From: a phage | Length of the DNA: 45,809 bases | Strand: one strand, 5' to 3' | NCBI GenBank assembly: GCA_024854585.1 | Contig: GCA_024854585.1_4323.1 | Shown: positions 1,673-44,028 of the stretch, in pieces | How the letters are laid out: every line of letters begins with the position of its first letter | How positions within the stretch are numbered: position 1 is the first letter of the stretch | The notes under the pieces: generated by a model | What the model was told of the DNA's origin: nothing | Seen by the model: only the letters and a program-made list of their open reading frames with translations | Databases searched by the model: none | Position numbers and translations under genes: made by a program

Positions 1673-2917
1673 CTATACTGGTTTTTGTTGTTGAGATTCA
1701 ATATCACCATCACCAATCTTAATCTCTGGTGCGATAGTACGTAGTGTATCACGGGCTTCGTTAGTATCCATAGCCCCAGCTGTAATTAGTGACGCGATGC
1801 TGTTTACGTTCTTCTCAAGAATCTCCGCCTTATCCTTGCTTGACTCCTGCGCCAGAGGGTTAAACTCAACCGACCATTCATCCACGTTAACAATGAACTT
1901 AATTAAGAACTCAAGAATAGGAAGCAATTCAGAGTTACGCTTGCGGTCAACTAGCTTATGGAATGTCTCAAGGGCTGTATTCTGGCTTGATGATACGCCA
2001 CCAACGTTCTTGTTCTTGAGGATAATTTCATGAATACCGCTCAGAGCAACGATTCTGTCAAACTTCTTATCCAGGAACGCGTCAATCCCACCAATATCAG
2101 AGTTCAGAACGCTGTATTCTTCAGACTCTGCATCAATGCCAATGGCCTGACCAACGCCGCTATTGTTGTCAACCTGTGCAAGTCGTAATCTAGCGGCACC
2201 AAATCCTTCGCTATCATCACATAACTCAGCCAGACCTTTCGCCTTCCACACTGCTTGCTGCTTGCGCTTCAGTAACTGCGTAGCCAGTCGTTCGCAGTTG
2301 GTGTAATCCTTAATTGAGTCAAGAATGTCACTTGATAGAACGCTGCGGCCCCAGCCATCATTCTGCCGACGCATTACGTTAGGAATTCGCTCTCCGTCAA
2401 TGATGTGAATGCGGCTGTAGTGCACATCGTAGAACATATCGCTTTCGTTTGTGGTGATACGATAGGTTAGCGGCTTACCAAATCGCGAGTTGCGTGGGTT
2501 CTCCTCGCGAGTTCGTACCTTTACCTGCGTACGGTCGTAAACGCGAACAGTTTCAAGCTCGGCACCTTCTCTGACCGGACTCGTTAATGCTCTATTGTCC
2601 TTAACGATAGCGACAATTGCAGCGCCGCCAAATAATCGCGCCCATGACCAAGCGTCGTTAATGTTCTGAGTCATTTCTAAATCATCCCAGCGCGACCAAA
2701 ATGCTGACTCATCATCAATACCATCAATGTGGAACCCTGCCGCTAGTGCTGTTTCCGGGATTGTGTCAATGATTCGACGCACCAGCGCATTATTCGCATA
2801 AATCGAAGCAAGAATTGTAGGGTCTTGATTCTGTAAACTCCCGTAAATCTCACTACCATCACTGCCGCCTAGAAAGATATTGGCGTAGCTGTCTGTCTTA
2901 ACCATGTTTTTCTCCAA
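1673..2917 (-). CDS. Portal protein (probable true start ATG at 2905)
   Basis: 414 aa, position between large terminase and protease/scaffold; GGAGA RBS before internal ATG. Confidence 0.6.
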   Translation of the reverse strand: MEKNMVKTDSYANIFLGGSDGSEIYGSLQNQDPTILASIYANNALVRRIIDTIPETALAAGFHIDGIDDESAFWSRWDDLEMTQNINDAWSWARLFGGAAIVAIVKDNRALTSPVREGAELETVRVYDRTQVKVRTREENPRNSRFGKPLTYRITTNESDMFYDVHYSRIHIIDGERIPNVMRRQNDGWGRSVLSSDILDSIKDYTNCERLATQLLKRKQQAVWKAKGLAELCDDSEGFGAARLRLAQVDNNSGVGQAIGIDAESEEYSVLNSDIGGIDAFLDKKFDRIVALSGIHEIILKNKNVGGVSSSQNTALETFHKLVDRKRNSELLPILEFLIKFIVNVDEWSVEFNPLAQESSKDKAEILEKNVNSIASLITAGAMDTNEARDTLRTIAPEIKIGDGDIESQQQKPV

Positions 2918-2923
2918 TAAAAA

Positions 2924-2940
2924 AGCCCCATGTAGGGGCT
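2924..2940. terminator. Hairpin agccccatgtaggggct with flanking A/T runs; terminator-RBS cassette upstream of portal
   Basis: Perfect GC stem; near-identical copy at about 38011-38029. Confidence 0.5.
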
Positions 2941-3204
2941 AGTTTATCACACGGCTTTTAATTACTCGAATTTTACTTCGAACTTGATTGTGTCGCACTT
3001 TACGCCATCCCGATCAAGCGCATATACAGTACGACCCACATTTCCGAACTCAATCACGTCAACCTCATGTCCGTTTATGTAATATCTTAGATATGGTTTT
3101 TTATTATTGTCAGTGGCTTTGGCTGCGCATTCGCTTTCAGTTAAGAAACCCTCGCCCTCTTCGCGGATATCAAACTTGTGGAATTCTCCGTTTTTTATGT
3201 AACG

Positions 3205-3393
3205 TTAACCATCATGATCATCTACGCACCAAAAATAGTTTTCATCATCAGTATCAAAACGGTTAACCCTATATTTCTTACCCACTGTGAATCCACAGTC
3301 TTCATTATCAATGTTACCAAGATATAATGCCTTTGAATAAATTGTAGTCATTTGTTTATCCCCTCTCGTTTCGATGAAGTAACTATACGCCAT
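3205..3393 (-). CDS. Small hypothetical protein; reading frame continues open for about 80 codons past its TAA stop (to about 2965)
   Basis: ORF track; likely true start at internal ATG (about 3351, MTTIYSK) after GAGAGGGG RBS; in-frame extension read directly from sequence. Confidence 0.45.
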   Translation of the reverse strand: MAYSYFIETRGDKQMTTIYSKALYLGNIDNEDCGFTVGKKYRVNRFDTDDENYFWCVDDHDG

Positions 3394-3407
3394 CCGTGGC
3401 GACTTAG

Positions 3408-3428
3408 TTTAGCAATTCGTGCTATTTA
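3408..3428 (-). promoter_or_regulatory. Palindromic early-promoter/operator motif copy (TTTAGCAATTCGTGCTATTTA on + strand)
   Basis: Contains inverted repeat TAGCA-N5-TGCTA; overlaps TerL stop codon; TATAGT-like hexamer about 20 nt toward downstream gene. Confidence 0.6.
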
Positions 3429-4987
3429 ATTCCTGCTATGCGCATTAGTCTCGCCTTAGGATCATCCGCGATGTTAAGTACAAGGTTTGCCGCCATTGTT
3501 AGACAGTCAATTTGGTCGTCGTGCTTATGCGAGTCATCTGCCGTAAAAGCCGCAACCTCAGTGAGCAATCCGTTTAGCCACGGCGATGACTCTGGAAGAA
3601 CTACGTTACCAGCCTTAATCTGTGGTAGTGCACTCATCACCCTGGTTAGCTTGTCATTATCCGGTACGTATGACTCTATCGGTGTTCGCATAACCCTGCC
3701 AGCTGATTGAATCAGGCCGATACCAGACGCTTTCTTCTCGATAATAATCTTTCTTAGGATACCATCTGACTGACTGGTTGCCCTTGATTTCTTCTCGAAG
3801 TCCAGCAGTTCAGCCTCCAACTCTGGGGCCTCCCATTTACCCCTGCGCTGATCAATAAGGTAAATCTTAGCATCTTTATAGCCCCACAACTGAAGAACAG
3901 AGAAGTCGCTGTAACTTTTAGTGGTCATTGCGGTATCGCAAGTTATGAATCGATAGTCGTACTTAGCTGGAGGTCTGAACGTATCACTGATTCGCTGGAA
4001 CCAGTCCACGTTAATTAGGTTGCCACCCAGTGCTACTGGCTCCTGCTGATATTGACTAAGGAATGTGTACGGGTCGCTATCCCACATTGCCACCAGGTCG
4101 TTTACGGATTCCTTTTTAGGAAAGTAGCTGTAGTACTTTACGCCATCTCGCTCAATGTATTCGCTGCTTAGTACGTCCTCAGCAAACTGATCTTTAATCC
4201 AGTCAGGAAGTGAATCAATGTAATCCTCAGTAACTAATGCTGGTATCTTAATCAAATCGAATTCGATACCCATGCCGCCTTCCATCATGAAATAGGTTGA
4301 GTCATTGACGTGAAGCCGCTGCTGTATCGAAATGATTGGTGTCGCTTTGCCTTTTACAGAACTGGCTCGACGTGAGCGAATCGTATTTTTAAGCATTACG
4401 TGATTATTCGATCGGTACACTGCTGATAACATATCTGCGGGTTTGTCAAAGTCATCCAAAAGAACGGCTCCGCTGTATGTTTCGGTTATGTACCCACCGC
4501 GAGCGCCAGTAATCTGGCCTCCAGCCGCCTTTGATATTGACTCAAATCTAACCTTGCCACTCTCATCAAGAACCTGAAGCTCATCGTCTTTGCAAGTGCC
4601 AAACTTGCATGGCCAGAGTGACTGAAATTCTTGAGACTTGATAAGGTCGCGTACTCGCTTCGAGTTACGCTTAACCAGGGAGTCAGCAAAAGAGATGTTA
4701 AGGTTGCGCACCTTCCTAAGCTTAACCATCGAATAGGCCGGGAAGTGGATTGAGGCAATTTCCGTCTTTCCGCTGCCTGGTGCTATGTTAATGATGGTGT
4801 CCTTGCGCTCTCCTGCGATAATCTCGTCAATTATTCTGCACAAGTACTTGTGATGCCAGTTAGGGATGTATCGCTCGCCTTGCGTGATCTGGAACCAGCA
4901 ACGAAGAAAGCCCTCGAAGCTGTGTTCTGATATCGCCTTAACGGCCATCTTTTCCTGAATGGTCATTTCTTCCCATACTAAAGACAT
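3422..4987 (-). CDS. Terminase large subunit
   Basis: 521 aa; Walker A-like NIAPGSGKTE near N-terminus; precedes portal. Confidence 0.75.
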   Translation of the reverse strand: MSLVWEEMTIQEKMAVKAISEHSFEGFLRCWFQITQGERYIPNWHHKYLCRIIDEIIAGERKDTIINIAPGSGKTEIASIHFPAYSMVKLRKVRNLNISFADSLVKRNSKRVRDLIKSQEFQSLWPCKFGTCKDDELQVLDESGKVRFESISKAAGGQITGARGGYITETYSGAVLLDDFDKPADMLSAVYRSNNHVMLKNTIRSRRASSVKGKATPIISIQQRLHVNDSTYFMMEGGMGIEFDLIKIPALVTEDYIDSLPDWIKDQFAEDVLSSEYIERDGVKYYSYFPKKESVNDLVAMWDSDPYTFLSQYQQEPVALGGNLINVDWFQRISDTFRPPAKYDYRFITCDTAMTTKSYSDFSVLQLWGYKDAKIYLIDQRRGKWEAPELEAELLDFEKKSRATSQSDGILRKIIIEKKASGIGLIQSAGRVMRTPIESYVPDNDKLTRVMSALPQIKAGNVVLPESSPWLNGLLTEVAAFTADDSHKHDDQIDCLTMAANLVLNIADDPKARLMRIAGIK

Positions 4988-7433: not shown

Positions 7434-7454
7434 TTTAGCAATTCGTGCTATTTA
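7434..7454 (-). promoter_or_regulatory. Palindromic promoter/operator motif copy
   Basis: tttagcaattcgtgctattta; 20 nt then TATAGT; 56-nt leader to ATG 7377. Confidence 0.6.
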
Positions 7455-8097: not shown

Positions 8098-8116
8098 TTT
8101 AGCAATTCGTGCTATT
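8098..8116 (-). promoter_or_regulatory. Palindromic promoter/operator motif copy
   Basis: tttagcaattcgtgctatt upstream of 7851..8072. Confidence 0.55.
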
Positions 8117-9879: not shown

Positions 9880-9900
9880 TTTAGCAATTCGTGCTATTTA
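9880..9900 (-). promoter_or_regulatory. Palindromic promoter/operator motif copy
   Basis: tttagcaattcgtgctattta; overlaps stop of 9894..10418. Confidence 0.6.
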
Positions 9901-12099: not shown

Positions 12100-12260
12100 T
12101 GCTATTACCTTCAGATTTGAGCTATTGGGATTTTGAGGTTGTGTCAATAATGTCTGGAAAGGGCTGGCCTTGCGGTGATTGGTTCCGCGAAGACTTGCTT
12201 GAGAGTCATGAGATTATGCTCAAGGCCATAGAAAAAGCACGAAATATCACTAATTGCTAA
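12099..12260 (+). CDS. Small hypothetical protein (below ORF-track cutoff)
   Basis: ATG overlapping previous stop (GTGATG); about 53 codons; read from sequence. Confidence 0.3.
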   Translation: MLLPSDLSYWDFEVVSIMSGKGWPCGDWFREDLLESHEIMLKAIEKARNITNC

Positions 12261-12262
12261 AG
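12242..12262 (+). promoter_or_regulatory. Motif copy in + orientation (aaatatcactaattgctaaag) followed by hairpin agcccttcggggct
   Basis: Read from sequence. Confidence 0.45.
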
Positions 12263-13171: not shown

Positions 13172-13242
13172 GCACTAAAAGCTAAAGAATATCTGAGCGG
13201 GTGTTATATAATGCCCGCATATTAACGAGATGGAGTATTAAG

Positions 13243-14826
13243 ATGTTTGATTTCAACGAAGATAAACTATCTGTTGAACAGGTTATGGCAATTGCTGCCG
13301 CAGACAACCTCCCGCCACTGCGAGTCGCCATTAATGCCAATGGCTATCGCCAATCTCAATCATTCTGGAAAGCGCCAGTCGAGATTGATGCAGCTAATGA
13401 CAAATACCCCGTAATATCTCTCGGCAATGATATTGATGTTGTTGGTAAACTGTCAGCCAACATTGCTCGTTCAGTTCAGTTCCCCGAGTCTTCAGCTTAC
13501 ATGCACTTCCTGGGGTGTATTTCTGCCGCTATGCTAGGACGCTTTACTGTTGAGTATCACGGAACTCATCAGCCTACGTCTCTGTACGTAGTAACAAGCC
13601 AGCCTCCATCGACTGGTAAATCAGCTATTAACTCGCTATCTATTGCTCCAATGATTGCTGAGACTGAGCGGCTGAATGAAGTTCGAAAGCGTGAGCGTAA
13701 AAAGATTATGGCAAAACTATCTGCATTATCAAAAGAGATGAAGCAGGAAAAGTCACCATCAGAGATGGCTTCTCTTTTCGAGGAGAAAGAGGAGTTGGAG
13801 GAAAAACTCGAGAAACTATGCGATATCGTTTTCCCGGTTTCAGATACCACACCGGAAGGTCTTGCGCGAATAAACAATCGTCAGGGTAACTTTGCAGTAA
13901 TCTCGGATGAGGCAACGAGTGTAAACTCACTACTTGGCATGACCTATGGTGACGGATCAAAGAAAACGAACAGCGAACTGGTACTGAAGGCATGGGATGC
14001 TGGCAACGTATCTATCGCTCGTGCTAACGCTGAAAACAACATGAGCTTCGTCGCTATGGGTTGCATCTCTGTAATTGCGCAGGATGAGACAATCAACGCT
14101 ATCATGAACGCTGGCGCGCGTGGTATCGGTGTATCTGAGCGTTTCCTGCTTGTACGTGAAAAGTCATTCCTGGGCGAGCGTGTATTCGTTGATGAAAATG
14201 GCGAATCGACTTATGAACCAATTGATGGCGGGTTGAAGGCTGATTACTTCCGTTTAGTTCACGAGATAATGAATGAGCAAGAAGTTAAGTTGACAGTTAG
14301 TAATTCAGCAATGAAATATCTCAACCGCGCTCGTCAGGAAATGGAACCGCACCTTGCTGACGGCGGGAAGTATTCACACACAATGTTGCGAGGTGCGCTT
14401 GGTAAGTTCGATAAACAGGCAATAAGGATTGCGGCGGTACTTCATACTGTGCGCAACTGGTTCAACCCTAACGGCGGGAGTCCACATAAGTCTAGGGAGA
14501 TTGAACTTGATACTATGCAAGAGGCTGTAATCATGTTCCAGGAACTTAGCAAGACTTATCTGTCATCTGCAAACGCGGCTGGTCACGCTGGCGACAATGC
14601 CGAGATGAATAAGCTGATTGATATCCTGATCAAGCAAGGCAAAAGCGGGAAGGGCGTAGTTGGTATTCGTTCATTGTATGAAGCGGCTCGCAAGGTTAAG
14701 CCTTTCGAGGCTCAGGCGGGAGTAATGACGAAGATTAAAGATCACCTGCTGCCAATGCTTGATGAGAAAAACTATACTTGCCTGATTGGTGATAAAGTTT
14801 ACATTAATCCACGATTGCTGGGGTGA
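13243..14826 (+). CDS. Large hypothetical protein with P-loop-like motif (VVTSQPPSTGKSAI); possible NTPase of unknown role (track ORF starts 13201)
   Basis: 527 aa from ATG with GGAG RBS; GKS motif; termini shared with 9894..10418. Confidence 0.55.
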   Translation: MFDFNEDKLSVEQVMAIAAADNLPPLRVAINANGYRQSQSFWKAPVEIDAANDKYPVISLGNDIDVVGKLSANIARSVQFPESSAYMHFLGCISAAMLGRFTVEYHGTHQPTSLYVVTSQPPSTGKSAINSLSIAPMIAETERLNEVRKRERKKIMAKLSALSKEMKQEKSPSEMASLFEEKEELEEKLEKLCDIVFPVSDTTPEGLARINNRQGNFAVISDEATSVNSLLGMTYGDGSKKTNSELVLKAWDAGNVSIARANAENNMSFVAMGCISVIAQDETINAIMNAGARGIGVSERFLLVREKSFLGERVFVDENGESTYEPIDGGLKADYFRLVHEIMNEQEVKLTVSNSAMKYLNRARQEMEPHLADGGKYSHTMLRGALGKFDKQAIRIAAVLHTVRNWFNPNGGSPHKSREIELDTMQEAVIMFQELSKTYLSSANAAGHAGDNAEMNKLIDILIKQGKSGKGVVGIRSLYEAARKVKPFEAQAGVMTKIKDHLLPMLDEKNYTCLIGDKVYINPRLLG

Positions 14827-14829
14827 TGA

Positions 14830-15165
14830 ATGTTCCTGCTGGATATATTTAAGTTCTGCGAGTCGTATTCCTATTTCACGCGCCAGCATTTGGCGCGATT
14901 CATCTACCAACACAAGGACTCTCAGAGGTTCAGCAAGGCAGCGGGCTTATCACATAGAGAGTTTTGCAGTGCTGCATCAAAGGAGTTTTGTGCGAAGATG
15001 TTGAGTGCTGGTTACATTGATGGTAAGTGTGGTGAGTTTGTTAGCAATGGTAGCTTGAAGAGGCCATTTGGGTTTAACTTCGAGGCGCTTAACGGGTATG
15101 AAAGCAAATACATAAAAGAGATGATGAATATAGGAACAATGGCTGACGACGAGTTATTTATCTAA
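14830..15165 (+). CDS. Hypothetical protein
   Basis: 111 aa; start overlaps stop of upstream gene. Confidence 0.5.
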   Translation: MFLLDIFKFCESYSYFTRQHLARFIYQHKDSQRFSKAAGLSHREFCSAASKEFCAKMLSAGYIDGKCGEFVSNGSLKRPFGFNFEALNGYESKYIKEMMNIGTMADDELFI

Positions 15166-19820: not shown

Positions 19821-19841
19821 TTTAGCAATTCGTGCTATTTA
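19821..19841 (-). promoter_or_regulatory. Palindromic promoter/operator motif copy
   Basis: tttagcaattcgtgctattta overlapping stop of 19835..20254; TATAGT hexamer and GAAACGAAACACATAGAGAG leader follow. Confidence 0.6.
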
Positions 19842-22346: not shown

Positions 22347-22829
22347 ATGAATGCAGTTGACAAGCGAACCACTAACGGTAATAACGGAACTATCCGCACT
22401 GAAGACAAAAAACAACGTAAACGACCTTCAGGCTACTACGTTTTAAAAGATGAAGTAAGAGCCGGGCTACGCGCGCGGCTTGAGATGCTCCTTGATTTCT
22501 TCGTCACAAAGGCGAATATTGCAAAGCAGTTAAAGGTAACTCCGCAGGCTGTAGAAGAATGGTTTAAGCGTGGTATGATTTCTGCGCGCGGTGCTCAACT
22601 GTCGCACAACTACTACAAACGAAACGGAGAGGGTTTTCGTGCTACATTCTGCCGACCAGACCTGCAATTTGACGGTAACGGCAAGCCACTGACACTCCGG
22701 TGCAAAAAGCGTCACATGCTACGCGTGGTTACTGAGGCTGAGTTAGCCACCAAGCCAGAGTGTCGATCATGGCGCAAGATTAAGGCCGCTAACGAGGCAG
22801 CACGAAAAGCTAAAGAGCAAGGGAAATAG
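22347..22829 (+). CDS. Putative HTH DNA-binding protein
   Basis: 160 aa; KANIAKQLKVTPQAVEEWFKRGMIS resembles Cro/YdaS-type HTH; basic termini. Confidence 0.45.
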   Translation: MNAVDKRTTNGNNGTIRTEDKKQRKRPSGYYVLKDEVRAGLRARLEMLLDFFVTKANIAKQLKVTPQAVEEWFKRGMISARGAQLSHNYYKRNGEGFRATFCRPDLQFDGNGKPLTLRCKKRHMLRVVTEAELATKPECRSWRKIKAANEAARKAKEQGK

Positions 22830-22843
22830 CACGAATTGATAAA
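22824..22843 (+). promoter_or_regulatory. Motif copy in + orientation (aaatagcacgaattgataaa)
   Basis: Contains stop of 22347..22829; 20 nt then TATAGT; GGAGGT RBS before primase ATG. Confidence 0.55.
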
Positions 22844-23866: not shown

Positions 23867-23888
23867 CTTAGCAATTCGTGCTATTTTA
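23867..23888 (-). promoter_or_regulatory. Motif copy in minus-gene orientation with no minus-strand gene to drive (module-boundary remnant?)
   Basis: cttagcaattcgtgctatttta sits 20 nt upstream of tailspike ATG. Confidence 0.4.
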
Positions 23889-26534: not shown

Positions 26535-27020
26535 TCAGAAGTAAAACAGTTCTGCTTGCTTCCTTGCCTCTAATGCGGACCCAAACGTTTCGAATCGTCC
26601 GAGGTGTATTTTTCGACTGTTTACAGTTATGGATGCGTCATATTTTCCTTTATTAAAATGTACGCCTCTGTAACCTGTTTTATTGTTGACTCTTACACCT
26701 AAATTGCGCATGTTTCCTGTTCTGTCGGTTTTACTGAGGTTGCTGTAGGCATTGTTTTCTCTGTTCCTGTCAATATGGTCAATTTCAATATCACCATTCA
26801 AAGAACCTTCAACGAAAGCAACCGCAAGCCTGTGCGCCTGGAATCTATCTCCGTGGATGTTTATGCCTATTTATCCATGCCTAAGCGAACCGGCCCGCGA
26901 ACCCATCTCTACACGCCGAGATGTGGGAAGAATCCAAGAAAAGATTCCTGATTCTTTATTGTATGATAGGTGACGCATTGCTGCGTCAACCATATCTTTT
27001 GTTATTTCTTTGTATTTCAT
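26535..27020 (-). pseudogene. HNH-AP2 homing endonuclease interrupted by in-frame TAA (at 26871..26873)
   Basis: ATG 27020 reads MKYKEIT...GSLRHG then TAA then IGINIHGDRFQAHRLAVAFVEG...DHIDRNRENN...YRGVHFNKGKYDASITVNSRKIHLGRFETFGSALEARKQA in the same frame. Confidence 0.6.
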
Positions 27021-28185: not shown

Positions 28186-28205
28186 TTTAGCAATTCGTGC
28201 TATAT
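28186..28205 (-). promoter_or_regulatory. Palindromic promoter/operator motif copy
   Basis: tttagcaattcgtgctatat overlapping exonuclease stop; TATGAT hexamer and AACGAACGAGG leader before the Erf-like gene ATG. Confidence 0.55.
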
Positions 28206-29171: not shown

Positions 29172-29366
29172 CTATTCCTTAACCTTAACTACTTTAACAG
29201 ATTTCATATCTTCCTCAGTAAAGTACCCGGTCAGCACATCCCGGGCTTCTTCTTTAGTCTCGAATCTGTCTGCTTCGCTCTTATCTGTTGTGTACCCAGC
29301 TGGGCCGCCAAAGTAGCAGTCTCCGAACAGTGCATTGTTTTTCTCTTTGATAATGTAGTAGGTCAT
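29172..29366 (-). CDS. Hypothetical small protein
   Basis: 64 aa ORF directly upstream of exonuclease. Confidence 0.45.
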   Translation of the reverse strand: MTYYIIKEKNNALFGDCYFGGPAGYTTDKSEADRFETKEEARDVLTGYFTEEDMKSVKVVKVKE

Positions 29367-29673
29367 TTCTGCATCTCTCTATGGTTGATTGCTTTCGATT
29401 AGTTAACTATATAGTCAGCGCCATAGCCAGTCCAATTGGTTTTGCCAATCGTTGATTTAAGTTTACGTGTGAATGCTTGTAATTCCGTGTAGGCATTGCC
29501 ACTTGTTACGTAAAATGGCATCTCAGCCCAGATATAGCTCAATGTAACCATCGTGTATATCGTGTATACCGTTTCTTGCAGAGGGGTGAATTGGTATAGC
29601 TGCCACGCAATACTGTATAAATCCACATGATATTAAAATTATAACCGGAACACTCTATGGAAGTAGTTACATG

Positions 29674-29854: not shown

Positions 29855-29875
29855 AAATAGCACGATTTGCTAAAG
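29855..29875 (+). promoter_or_regulatory. Motif copy in + orientation (aaatagcacgatttgctaaag)
   Basis: Upstream of 29981..30652. Confidence 0.5.
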
Positions 29876-29980: not shown

Positions 29981-30652
29981 ATGAAAAACATAAGAGAGAC
30001 TAAAATGAACATTGAAGCGTACAAAGAACAGCCAAAAACCATGATGAGCACGAAGGAAATTGCTGAATTGACAGGTAAGCGTCATGATCACGTCGTTCGC
30101 GACACAAAGGAAATGATCAATGAATTGTTACATTATAACTATGCCCCAGATTTGGGTCATGATGATTATCAAGTACTTACGGACAATCGCGGCTATACAT
30201 CTGAGGTTTTACTCAACAAGGAACTCACCGAAACGCTAATCACTGGCTACAGTGTCGTACTTCGCCACAAAGTAATCCGCAGGCTTCATGAGCTTGAGGT
30301 GTTAGTTAAAAAACAAGCAGAAGTGATCAGCCAGATGGTAAGCATTGATGAGTTAAAAGAGGCGCGCATGATGCTTGGTGTGGCTAATGCTCAGAATGCA
30401 CACCTGAGCCAGCGCATTGTTGCAGAGCAAAGAATAAATGAGATTTTACTCATGGATAAGAATACCGATGAAAAACTCGACATGTTGGCTTGTGAGGCTC
30501 GCCAGTGTTGGGTTAGTCGTTCTGATGAGATGGAGGAAAGATTTAAGTATGAATCGCAATGCTTCGCGCTTAAAGAAAAGACGGATGCACTTACCGGATT
30601 AATTGAGAATGAGCTAGGTATTGACATTAAGCTGTTGCTCGAAAAGAAATAG
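29981..30652 (+). CDS. Rha-like phage regulatory protein (possible true start at 30005)
   Basis: N-terminal STKEIAELTGKRHDHVVRD pattern typical of Rha-family regulators; coiled-coil C-terminus. Confidence 0.45.
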   Translation: MKNIRETKMNIEAYKEQPKTMMSTKEIAELTGKRHDHVVRDTKEMINELLHYNYAPDLGHDDYQVLTDNRGYTSEVLLNKELTETLITGYSVVLRHKVIRRLHELEVLVKKQAEVISQMVSIDELKEARMMLGVANAQNAHLSQRIVAEQRINEILLMDKNTDEKLDMLACEARQCWVSRSDEMEERFKYESQCFALKEKTDALTGLIENELGIDIKLLLEKK

Positions 30653-30667
30653 CACTAATTGCTAAAC
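30647..30667 (+). promoter_or_regulatory. Motif copy in + orientation (aaatagcactaattgctaaac)
   Basis: Contains stop of 29981..30652; upstream of lipoprotein gene. Confidence 0.5.
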
Positions 30668-43691: not shown

Positions 43692-44028
43692 CTGTACCAG
43701 TTGGCTTCACGGGTCGCGGGTCAACAACAACAAAAGTCTCGCCATCAACTTTAATCTGATAACCCTGCTTGACTTCCACTTGAGCAGTGAAGATTCCACG
43801 CTTGTCACCGAACTGGATAAACTCGCCATCGATATCGCGCGTCTTGATTTCTCGCACCAAGCCTTTTAGCTGAAATGTCTGCGAAGGAACCTCAACCTCA
43901 ACGCCGTTAACGATTTCAACATATCCAGCGCCGGTGCTCATTTCGTAAACGCCATTGGCATCACTAAAGAAGTTAATTCCAGCGCGAGTTATTGATTCGA
44001 TTTCGTTGTAGTTCATCGGCAACCGCAC
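43645..44028 (-). CDS. Head-tail connector / head completion protein
   Basis: 127 aa; synteny. Confidence 0.4.
   Translation of the reverse strand: MRLPMNYNEIESITRAGINFFSDANGVYEMSTGAGYVEIVNGVEVEVPSQTFQLKGLVREIKTRDIDGEFIQFGDKRGIFTAQVEVKQGYQIKVDGETFVVVDPRPVKPTGTVVGYRPILRRVATYG

Follow-up and report, generated by a model that had tools for sequence, protein, structure and literature searches.

A probable fresh nonsense mutation in a dispensable rtp22-type gene between terL and portal of an Rtp/T1-like coliphage

Between terL (3422-4987) and the portal gene (from its ATG at 2905 to 1673) of the window, by which we mean the whole 45,809-nt stretch of phage DNA that was analysed (GenBank assembly GCA_024854585.1), lies a small gene with the following features.

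3408..3425, minus strand: palindromic 18-mer ATAGCACGAATTGCTAAA (TAGCA-N5-TGCTA), promoter/operator-like, overlapping the terL stop TAG at 3424-3422; one of 12 copies in the window
3382..3387, minus strand: TATAGT, a -10-like hexamer, 22 nt downstream of the palindrome; the layout recurs at other copies of the motif
3359..3367, minus strand: RBS GAGAGGGGA, 7 nt before the ATG at 3351; conserved in Rtp and BEK2
3205..3351, minus strand: truncated CDS of 48 codons (MTTIYSK...CVDDHDG) plus the premature TAA at 3207-3205; NCBI EJQ7674183.1; matches phrog_14592 positions 2-39
3205..3205, minus strand: mutated base, A on the coding strand vs. C in six near-identical copies (TAC Tyr49 to TAA)
2962..3204, minus strand: apparently untranslated gene remnant, codons 50-129 plus the original stop TAA at 2964-2962; matches phrog_14592 positions 45-116, E 4.7e-22
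2914..2940, minus strand: intrinsic-terminator-like hairpin AGCCCCTACATGGGGCT (hairpin 2940-2924) with its T-run; conserved in Rtp and BEK2

Translation of the minus strand from 3393 to 2962 reads MAYSYF...CVDDHDG, a stop, RYIKNGEFHKFDIREEGEGF...DTIKFEVKFE and a final stop. The in-frame stop is the TAA at 3207-3205, behind which 80 codons (3204-2965) stay open up to the TAA at 2964-2962, just before the hairpin at 2940-2914 that in turn directly precedes the portal RBS and the ATG at 2905. This direct translation bears out the initial annotation, which had described a frame split by an in-frame TAA, with about 80 further open codons reaching a terminator hairpin. The same annotation had called such an open frame unlikely by chance in AT-rich DNA; the first part of this statement stands, with a chance of ~0.8% for an 80-codon open stretch at the base composition given (and 1.3% of stop-to-stop segments of at least 80 codons in shuffled sequence), but the DNA, at a G+C of 44%, is only mildly AT-rich. 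The open stretch behind the TAA is no chance feature.

The palindrome upstream of the gene recurs across the genome, with 12 copies vs. 0 expected, each oriented with the local genes, at the following window positions.

Copies of ATAGCACGAATTGCTAAA: 3408-3425, 7434-7451, 8098-8115, 9880-9897, 12244-12261, 19530-19547
Copies of ATAGCACGAATTGCTAAA, continued: 19821-19838, 22826-22843, 23867-23884, 28186-28203, 29857-29874, 30649-30666

Most copies are followed ~22 nt downstream by a TATAGT-like hexamer and then by CATCGAAACGA, an RBS and an ATG. The position of the palindrome centre, near -41.5 from the inferred transcription start, suggests that these elements may be activator-dependent phage promoters.

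With respect to the start codon, the true start is ATG 3351 (129 aa for the intact gene) and not ATG 3393 (144 aa). The ATG 3351 position is the start in nearly all relatives in the cluster alignment, and the product listed by NCBI, like that of the Logan gene call, has 48 aa. ATG 3393 is probably no start codon; it sits inside the conserved promoter-like upstream element, just upstream of TATAGT, and indels shift the corresponding ATG out of frame in Rtp and BEK2. No record of a 62-aa product from ATG 3393 was found in the databases, which is in line with ATG 3351 as the start. Accordingly, the earlier suggestion that relatives may encode a single protein of roughly 144 aa proved right as to the single protein and wrong as to its length, the intact form having 129 aa.

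As judged by sequence homology, a single gene of the rtp22 / phrog_14592 family occupies the locus. A repaired protein, with a residue put in place of the stop, aligns to phrog_14592 from position 2 to position 116 of its 116 (E 3.2e-30), and the two halves taken separately match positions 2-39 (before the stop) and 45-116 (after it). The protein has 54% identity to rtp22 (YP_398966.1), and a single ORF is found between terL and portal in Rtp (rtp22, 118 aa), BEK2 (127 aa) and RobRod40 (128 aa), with the order terL-gene-portal being the same in the window, these three phages and five metagenomic contigs. In RobRod40, DDDGVYRYVKNG stands opposite the VDDHDG-stop-RYIKNG of the window. A tblastn search recovered a homologue in 20 phage records, all from coliphages of the T1/Rtp-like group and each aligned as one piece, and a search of 5.8 billion proteins yielded 46 homologous clusters, all single ORFs, of which 45 are 118-145 aa long while one, of 94 aa, covers 64% of the query. 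In the cluster alignment, the stop position is occupied by a sense codon, mostly Tyr, within a G-x-Y-R motif, and the C-terminus GVKCDTIKFEVKFE is nearly invariant across the family. The locus thus shares with phrog_14592 and rtp22 an end-to-end profile match, synteny and the C-terminal GVKCDTIKFEVKFE, and differs from them in being interrupted: the family is otherwise recognized as one uninterrupted ORF of ~118-129 aa, whereas the window copy has a TAA at codon 49. With the ORF interrupted in the window and uninterrupted in its relatives, we consider it a disrupted allele of this family. Both halves have dN/dS values of 0.37-0.46 against RobRod40, BEK2 and Rtp, a range that shows ordinary coding constraint in the history of the family and is uninformative about relaxation after so recent a mutation.

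The phrog_14592 profile carries the label "virion structural protein", for which no experimental source was found in the T1/Rtp-like virion proteomics literature; a proteomics paper on T1-like phages lists seven structural proteins and does not mention the rtp22 family gene. No Pfam family or solved homologue was found for the protein, and Foldseek gave no significant match in the PDB. An AlphaFold2 model built from a 46-sequence alignment (mean pLDDT 74.7) predicts two folded parts joined by a disordered linker: a five-stranded SH3-like barrel at the N-terminus (residues 5-63) and an alpha/beta domain at the C-terminus (88-128). In this model the TAA interrupts the N-terminal barrel where strand 4 begins, and, going by the predicted fold, the 48-residue fragment cannot complete the barrel and is most likely non-functional.

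To what extent the window copy departs from an intact gene is evident from its nearest relatives. Six near-identical public copies (metagenome contig Ga0172378_10209872 and five Logan/ENA contigs) share 386-388 of 390 nt with it, and all carry TAC (Tyr) at codon 49. On the coding strand, this TAC has become TAA through one C>A change, at base 3205. The intact allele, represented by P0001 / DAH81979.1 (MAG TPA Caudoviricetes) and HAN9010022.1 (129 aa), has the same place, RBS and terminator, and differs from the window in having TAC vs. TAA at codon 49 and in 1-3 further substitutions; over the remnant at 2962..3204, the window and the intact alleles differ at 1-3 bases only. Among members of the 90%-identity cluster, 13 are full length and the 48-aa product of the window is the sole truncated one. 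Exact-pattern scans of viral_contigs around this stop, and around a second one in an HNH gene described below, gave no matches. Comparison of the alleles shows that, for its interruption, the gene differs from the intact allele by a single base and that the stop is unique to this source. Furthermore, private substitutions relative to two near-identical contigs number 0 in terL and 2 in the gene, one of the latter being the stop itself, which argues that the stop is very recent; as dated by this divergence, the premature stop is very young, and its recency accounts for the remainder of the frame having stayed open.

These comparisons also bear on whether the locus might hold two separate genes, with translation of the downstream 80 codons beginning anew, through reinitiation or at a non-canonical start codon. 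The frame behind the stop is unbroken and contains GVKCDTIKFEVKFE, the best-conserved stretch of the family, but a stop of such very recent origin accounts for its being unbroken. The annotation had noticed no start near the beginning of this frame, and indeed its only ATG, GTG or TTG is the GTG at 3057, which has no RBS and opens an ORF of only 31 aa. In addition, it had named as contrary evidence a relative with two genes and an independent downstream start; we found neither two genes nor a start or RBS at the downstream part in any relative, all of them having single ORFs, including Rtp, BEK2, RobRod40 and the six near-identical copies. We therefore view two separate genes as extremely improbable. 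One ochre-split gene, with the downstream frame as its remainder, is the reading supported by homology and by the intact alleles.

The gene is not shared by all relatives of the phage. The window comprises the complete genome of an Rtp/T1-like E. coli siphophage (Drexlerviridae, Braunvirinae), with ~86% DNA identity to vB_EcoS-12210I over 76% of its first 25 kb, the gene order terS, terL, portal, protease, capsid and tail genes, and one tRNA-Arg(UCU). In vB_EcoS-12210I, the closest overall relative, the gene is absent and the terL-portal gap is 48 bp; overall, the gene is present in ~20 of ~135 related records. Its absence from vB_EcoS-12210I shows, at the level of comparative genomics, that the gene is dispensable for the phage, and thus no readthrough is needed to account for its interruption. 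The evidence from natural variation for a non-essential gene fits poorly with the label "virion structural protein".

Other phages have other contents in the same interval (2905-3425 in the window). It holds an rtp22-type gene in the window and in Rtp, is empty in vB_EcoS-12210I, has an added HNH gene in RobRod40 and AugustePiccard, and carries unrelated or shorter small genes in phiEB49 (68 aa) and ACG-M12 (102 aa). Given these other genes, or none, the terL-portal interval is a variable accessory slot. In BFVD, the predicted folds of small proteins from the same locus (phiEB49, ACG-M12 and other phages) resemble the N-terminal barrel. The arrangement recalls phage "morons", accessory cassettes with their own promoter and terminator, as the gene lies between a promoter-like motif and a terminator, is found in some close relatives only and sits between two essential late genes; it differs from them in that the upstream motif is a genome-wide phage element rather than a cassette-specific one and the promoter is putative.

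We also weighed the idea that ribosomes pass the stop and make a full-length protein, helped either by a Tyr-inserting ochre suppressor of the host or by programmed readthrough or bypassing. Of the three premature TAA codons in the window, two (in this gene and in the HNH gene) replace a Tyr TAC, and Tyr is the residue that classical ochre suppressors of the supC type insert; in both genes a Gly codon precedes the TAA, and bypassing in T4 gene 60 likewise starts at a Gly codon in front of a stop. However, several observations speak against any such recoding: 1) the stop is absent from every relative and hence is no conserved programmed feature; 2) TAA is the commonest genuine stop of the genome, ending 25 of the 42 ORFs of at least 100 aa, and UAA is read by both release factors, with very low basal readthrough; 3) no suppressor tRNA or Rfam element was found in the window, the Rfam search giving only the tRNA-Arg(UCU), in agreement with the earlier remark that the sole tRNA is a normal one and no suppressor; 4) the 111 nt surrounding the stop have a folding energy of -17.7 kcal/mol (z = 0.46 vs. 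shuffles), and so form no stable structure; 5) the residues after the stop are homologous to those of relatives, so that bypassing is unneeded; 6) the third premature TAA stands in place of a Ser codon, with a frameshift after it. We rejected bypassing in the style of T4 gene 60 on account of the homologous residues after the stop and the lack of conservation of the stops, and reassignment of TAA on account of stop-codon usage. Programmed recoding systems (UGA readthrough in Q-beta A1, T4 gene 60, TAG/TGA-recoded phages) likewise have an in-frame stop in homologous coding sequence, after a Gly codon; unlike them, the window has a stop private to one genome, TAA as its normal terminator, and neither a stimulatory structure nor a suppressor tRNA. 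Production of the full-length protein through the stop is, in our judgement, very improbable.

The initial annotation had counted two ochre-interrupted genes; this number turned out to be too low, as three TAA-interrupted accessory genes were found when ORFs of Rtp, RobRod40 and 12210I were screened against the window for in-frame stops, using a greedy non-overlapping ORF set (an earlier screen with all six-frame ORFs of the relatives had been swamped by non-coding frames). Besides the rtp22-type gene, one is an HNH_3/AP2-type homing endonuclease gene at 26535-27020 (minus strand), downstream of an ssb-like gene, with a TAA at 26873-26871: the window reads GGA TAA ATA vs. GGA TAC ATA in a 97%-identical copy (SRR28381453) and in phage A123. 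NCBI annotates only an 88-aa C-terminal fragment of it (EJQ7674221.1). The SRR28381453 copy has a nonsense change of its own, GAG>TAG, 11 codons before its end, and this separate change indicates that these HNH genes decay repeatedly. The other is the rtp46 homologue (132 aa in Rtp) at 29172-29626 (minus strand), in which TCA>TAA at 29401-29399 is accompanied by a 2-nt insertion ~17 nt downstream. The C-terminal 64-aa ORF of this homologue (29172-29366) keeps its own ATG and is a stand-alone gene in vB_EcoS-12210I. Screen candidates at 43709, 11854 and 18679 were rejected as lying upstream of the true start or antisense. Separately, RobRod40 CDS0067 (174 aa) aligns with 41% identity to 14596-14925 (plus strand), across the ORFs 13201-14826 and 14830-15165; the aligned stretch passes from the last part of the helicase ORF into the first part of the one after it, crossing two adjacent same-frame stops, and could reflect a paralogous domain or else an old fusion or split.

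As for the source of the DNA, the window is a phage contig within an E. coli isolate assembly (locus tags N0N85_..., with the products EJQ7674183.1 and EJQ7674221.1); the co-sequencing of a virulent T1-like phage with the bacterial isolate points to contamination or a carrier culture. It is identical to Logan contig SRR21389225_139, which runs across the ends of the window; since that contig joins the two ends, the genome is circular or circularly permuted.

This provenance raises the question of whether the phage really has TAC, the TAA being an artefact of sequencing or assembly or else a minority variant picked by the assemblers. The truncated allele is recorded only from the window's own source, namely the E. 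coli isolate assembly and the Logan assembly of SRR21389225; the NCBI contig, of 45,809 nt, has the same sequence as the Logan contig, of 45,839 nt, the latter being 100% identical to the window over 20 kb, but both assemblies probably derive from the same reads. The gene differs by one base from six intact copies and contains no other lesion, and a base-call error would look alike; C>A / G>T is also a known type of oxidative library artefact. On the other hand, window-private changes in a 4.3-kb block show no excess of C>A/G>T (7 of 53), and the 2-nt insertion beside the TAA of the rtp46 homologue is atypical of a substitution artefact and points to real decay. Thus, we consider an artefact unlikely and infer that the base call at 3205 reflects the real phage population. 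Two other broken accessory genes, one of them with the 2-nt insertion as well, fit real gene decay.

Taken together, these data favor, with a probability of roughly 0.8, a fresh nonsense pseudogene of a dispensable accessory gene, a finding of an ordinary kind. We propose that a small accessory gene of some T1/Rtp-like coliphages (Drexlerviridae), situated between terL and portal, would have suffered a C>A change at 3205 that turns the TAC of Tyr49 into TAA, so that translation from ATG 3351 would end after 48 residues. The resulting fragment would lack two strands of the barrel and all of the conserved C-terminal domain. The 80 codons behind the stop would then be the undecayed rest of the gene, which has collected no further stop or frameshift yet, and the phage would tolerate the loss because the gene is dispensable. 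All three premature stops in the window are TAA codons arising from C>A on the same (minus) strand, two of them replacing Tyr; simple random decay would not lead one to expect this mildly unusual coincidence. Given the absence of a general C>A/G>T excess, we take this shared pattern as a coincidence or a weak hint and not as a signature.

A more adaptive origin of the mutation can be imagined by analogy with Gp54 of phage Bas11 (PDB 9axb), a small non-essential SH3-related beta-barrel protein that triggers CapRelSJ46; phages escape CapRelSJ46 via loss-of-function mutations in Gp54, including the premature stop W43* (PMC11578894). Like Gp54, the window gene would encode a small SH3-like barrel protein, is non-essential and is lost by a premature stop. 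Should a defence system of the host recognize this small SH3-like protein, the nonsense allele might be a selected loss-of-function escape, a speculation that we hold to be quite improbable. Were it true, the three C>A TAA stops might testify to adaptation, or else to a bout of G:C>T:A mutator activity, while the phage grew persistently in the E. coli isolate sequenced with it.

For the probable fresh pseudogene, the consequence is mainly one of annotation, beyond which its importance is slight: the locus should be annotated as one disrupted gene (pseudogene) and not as a 48-aa hypothetical protein plus a gap. We found no evidence for recoding here, and the simplest explanation for a long open frame behind a stop in a phage genome such as this one would be a fresh nonsense mutation of a dispensable gene.
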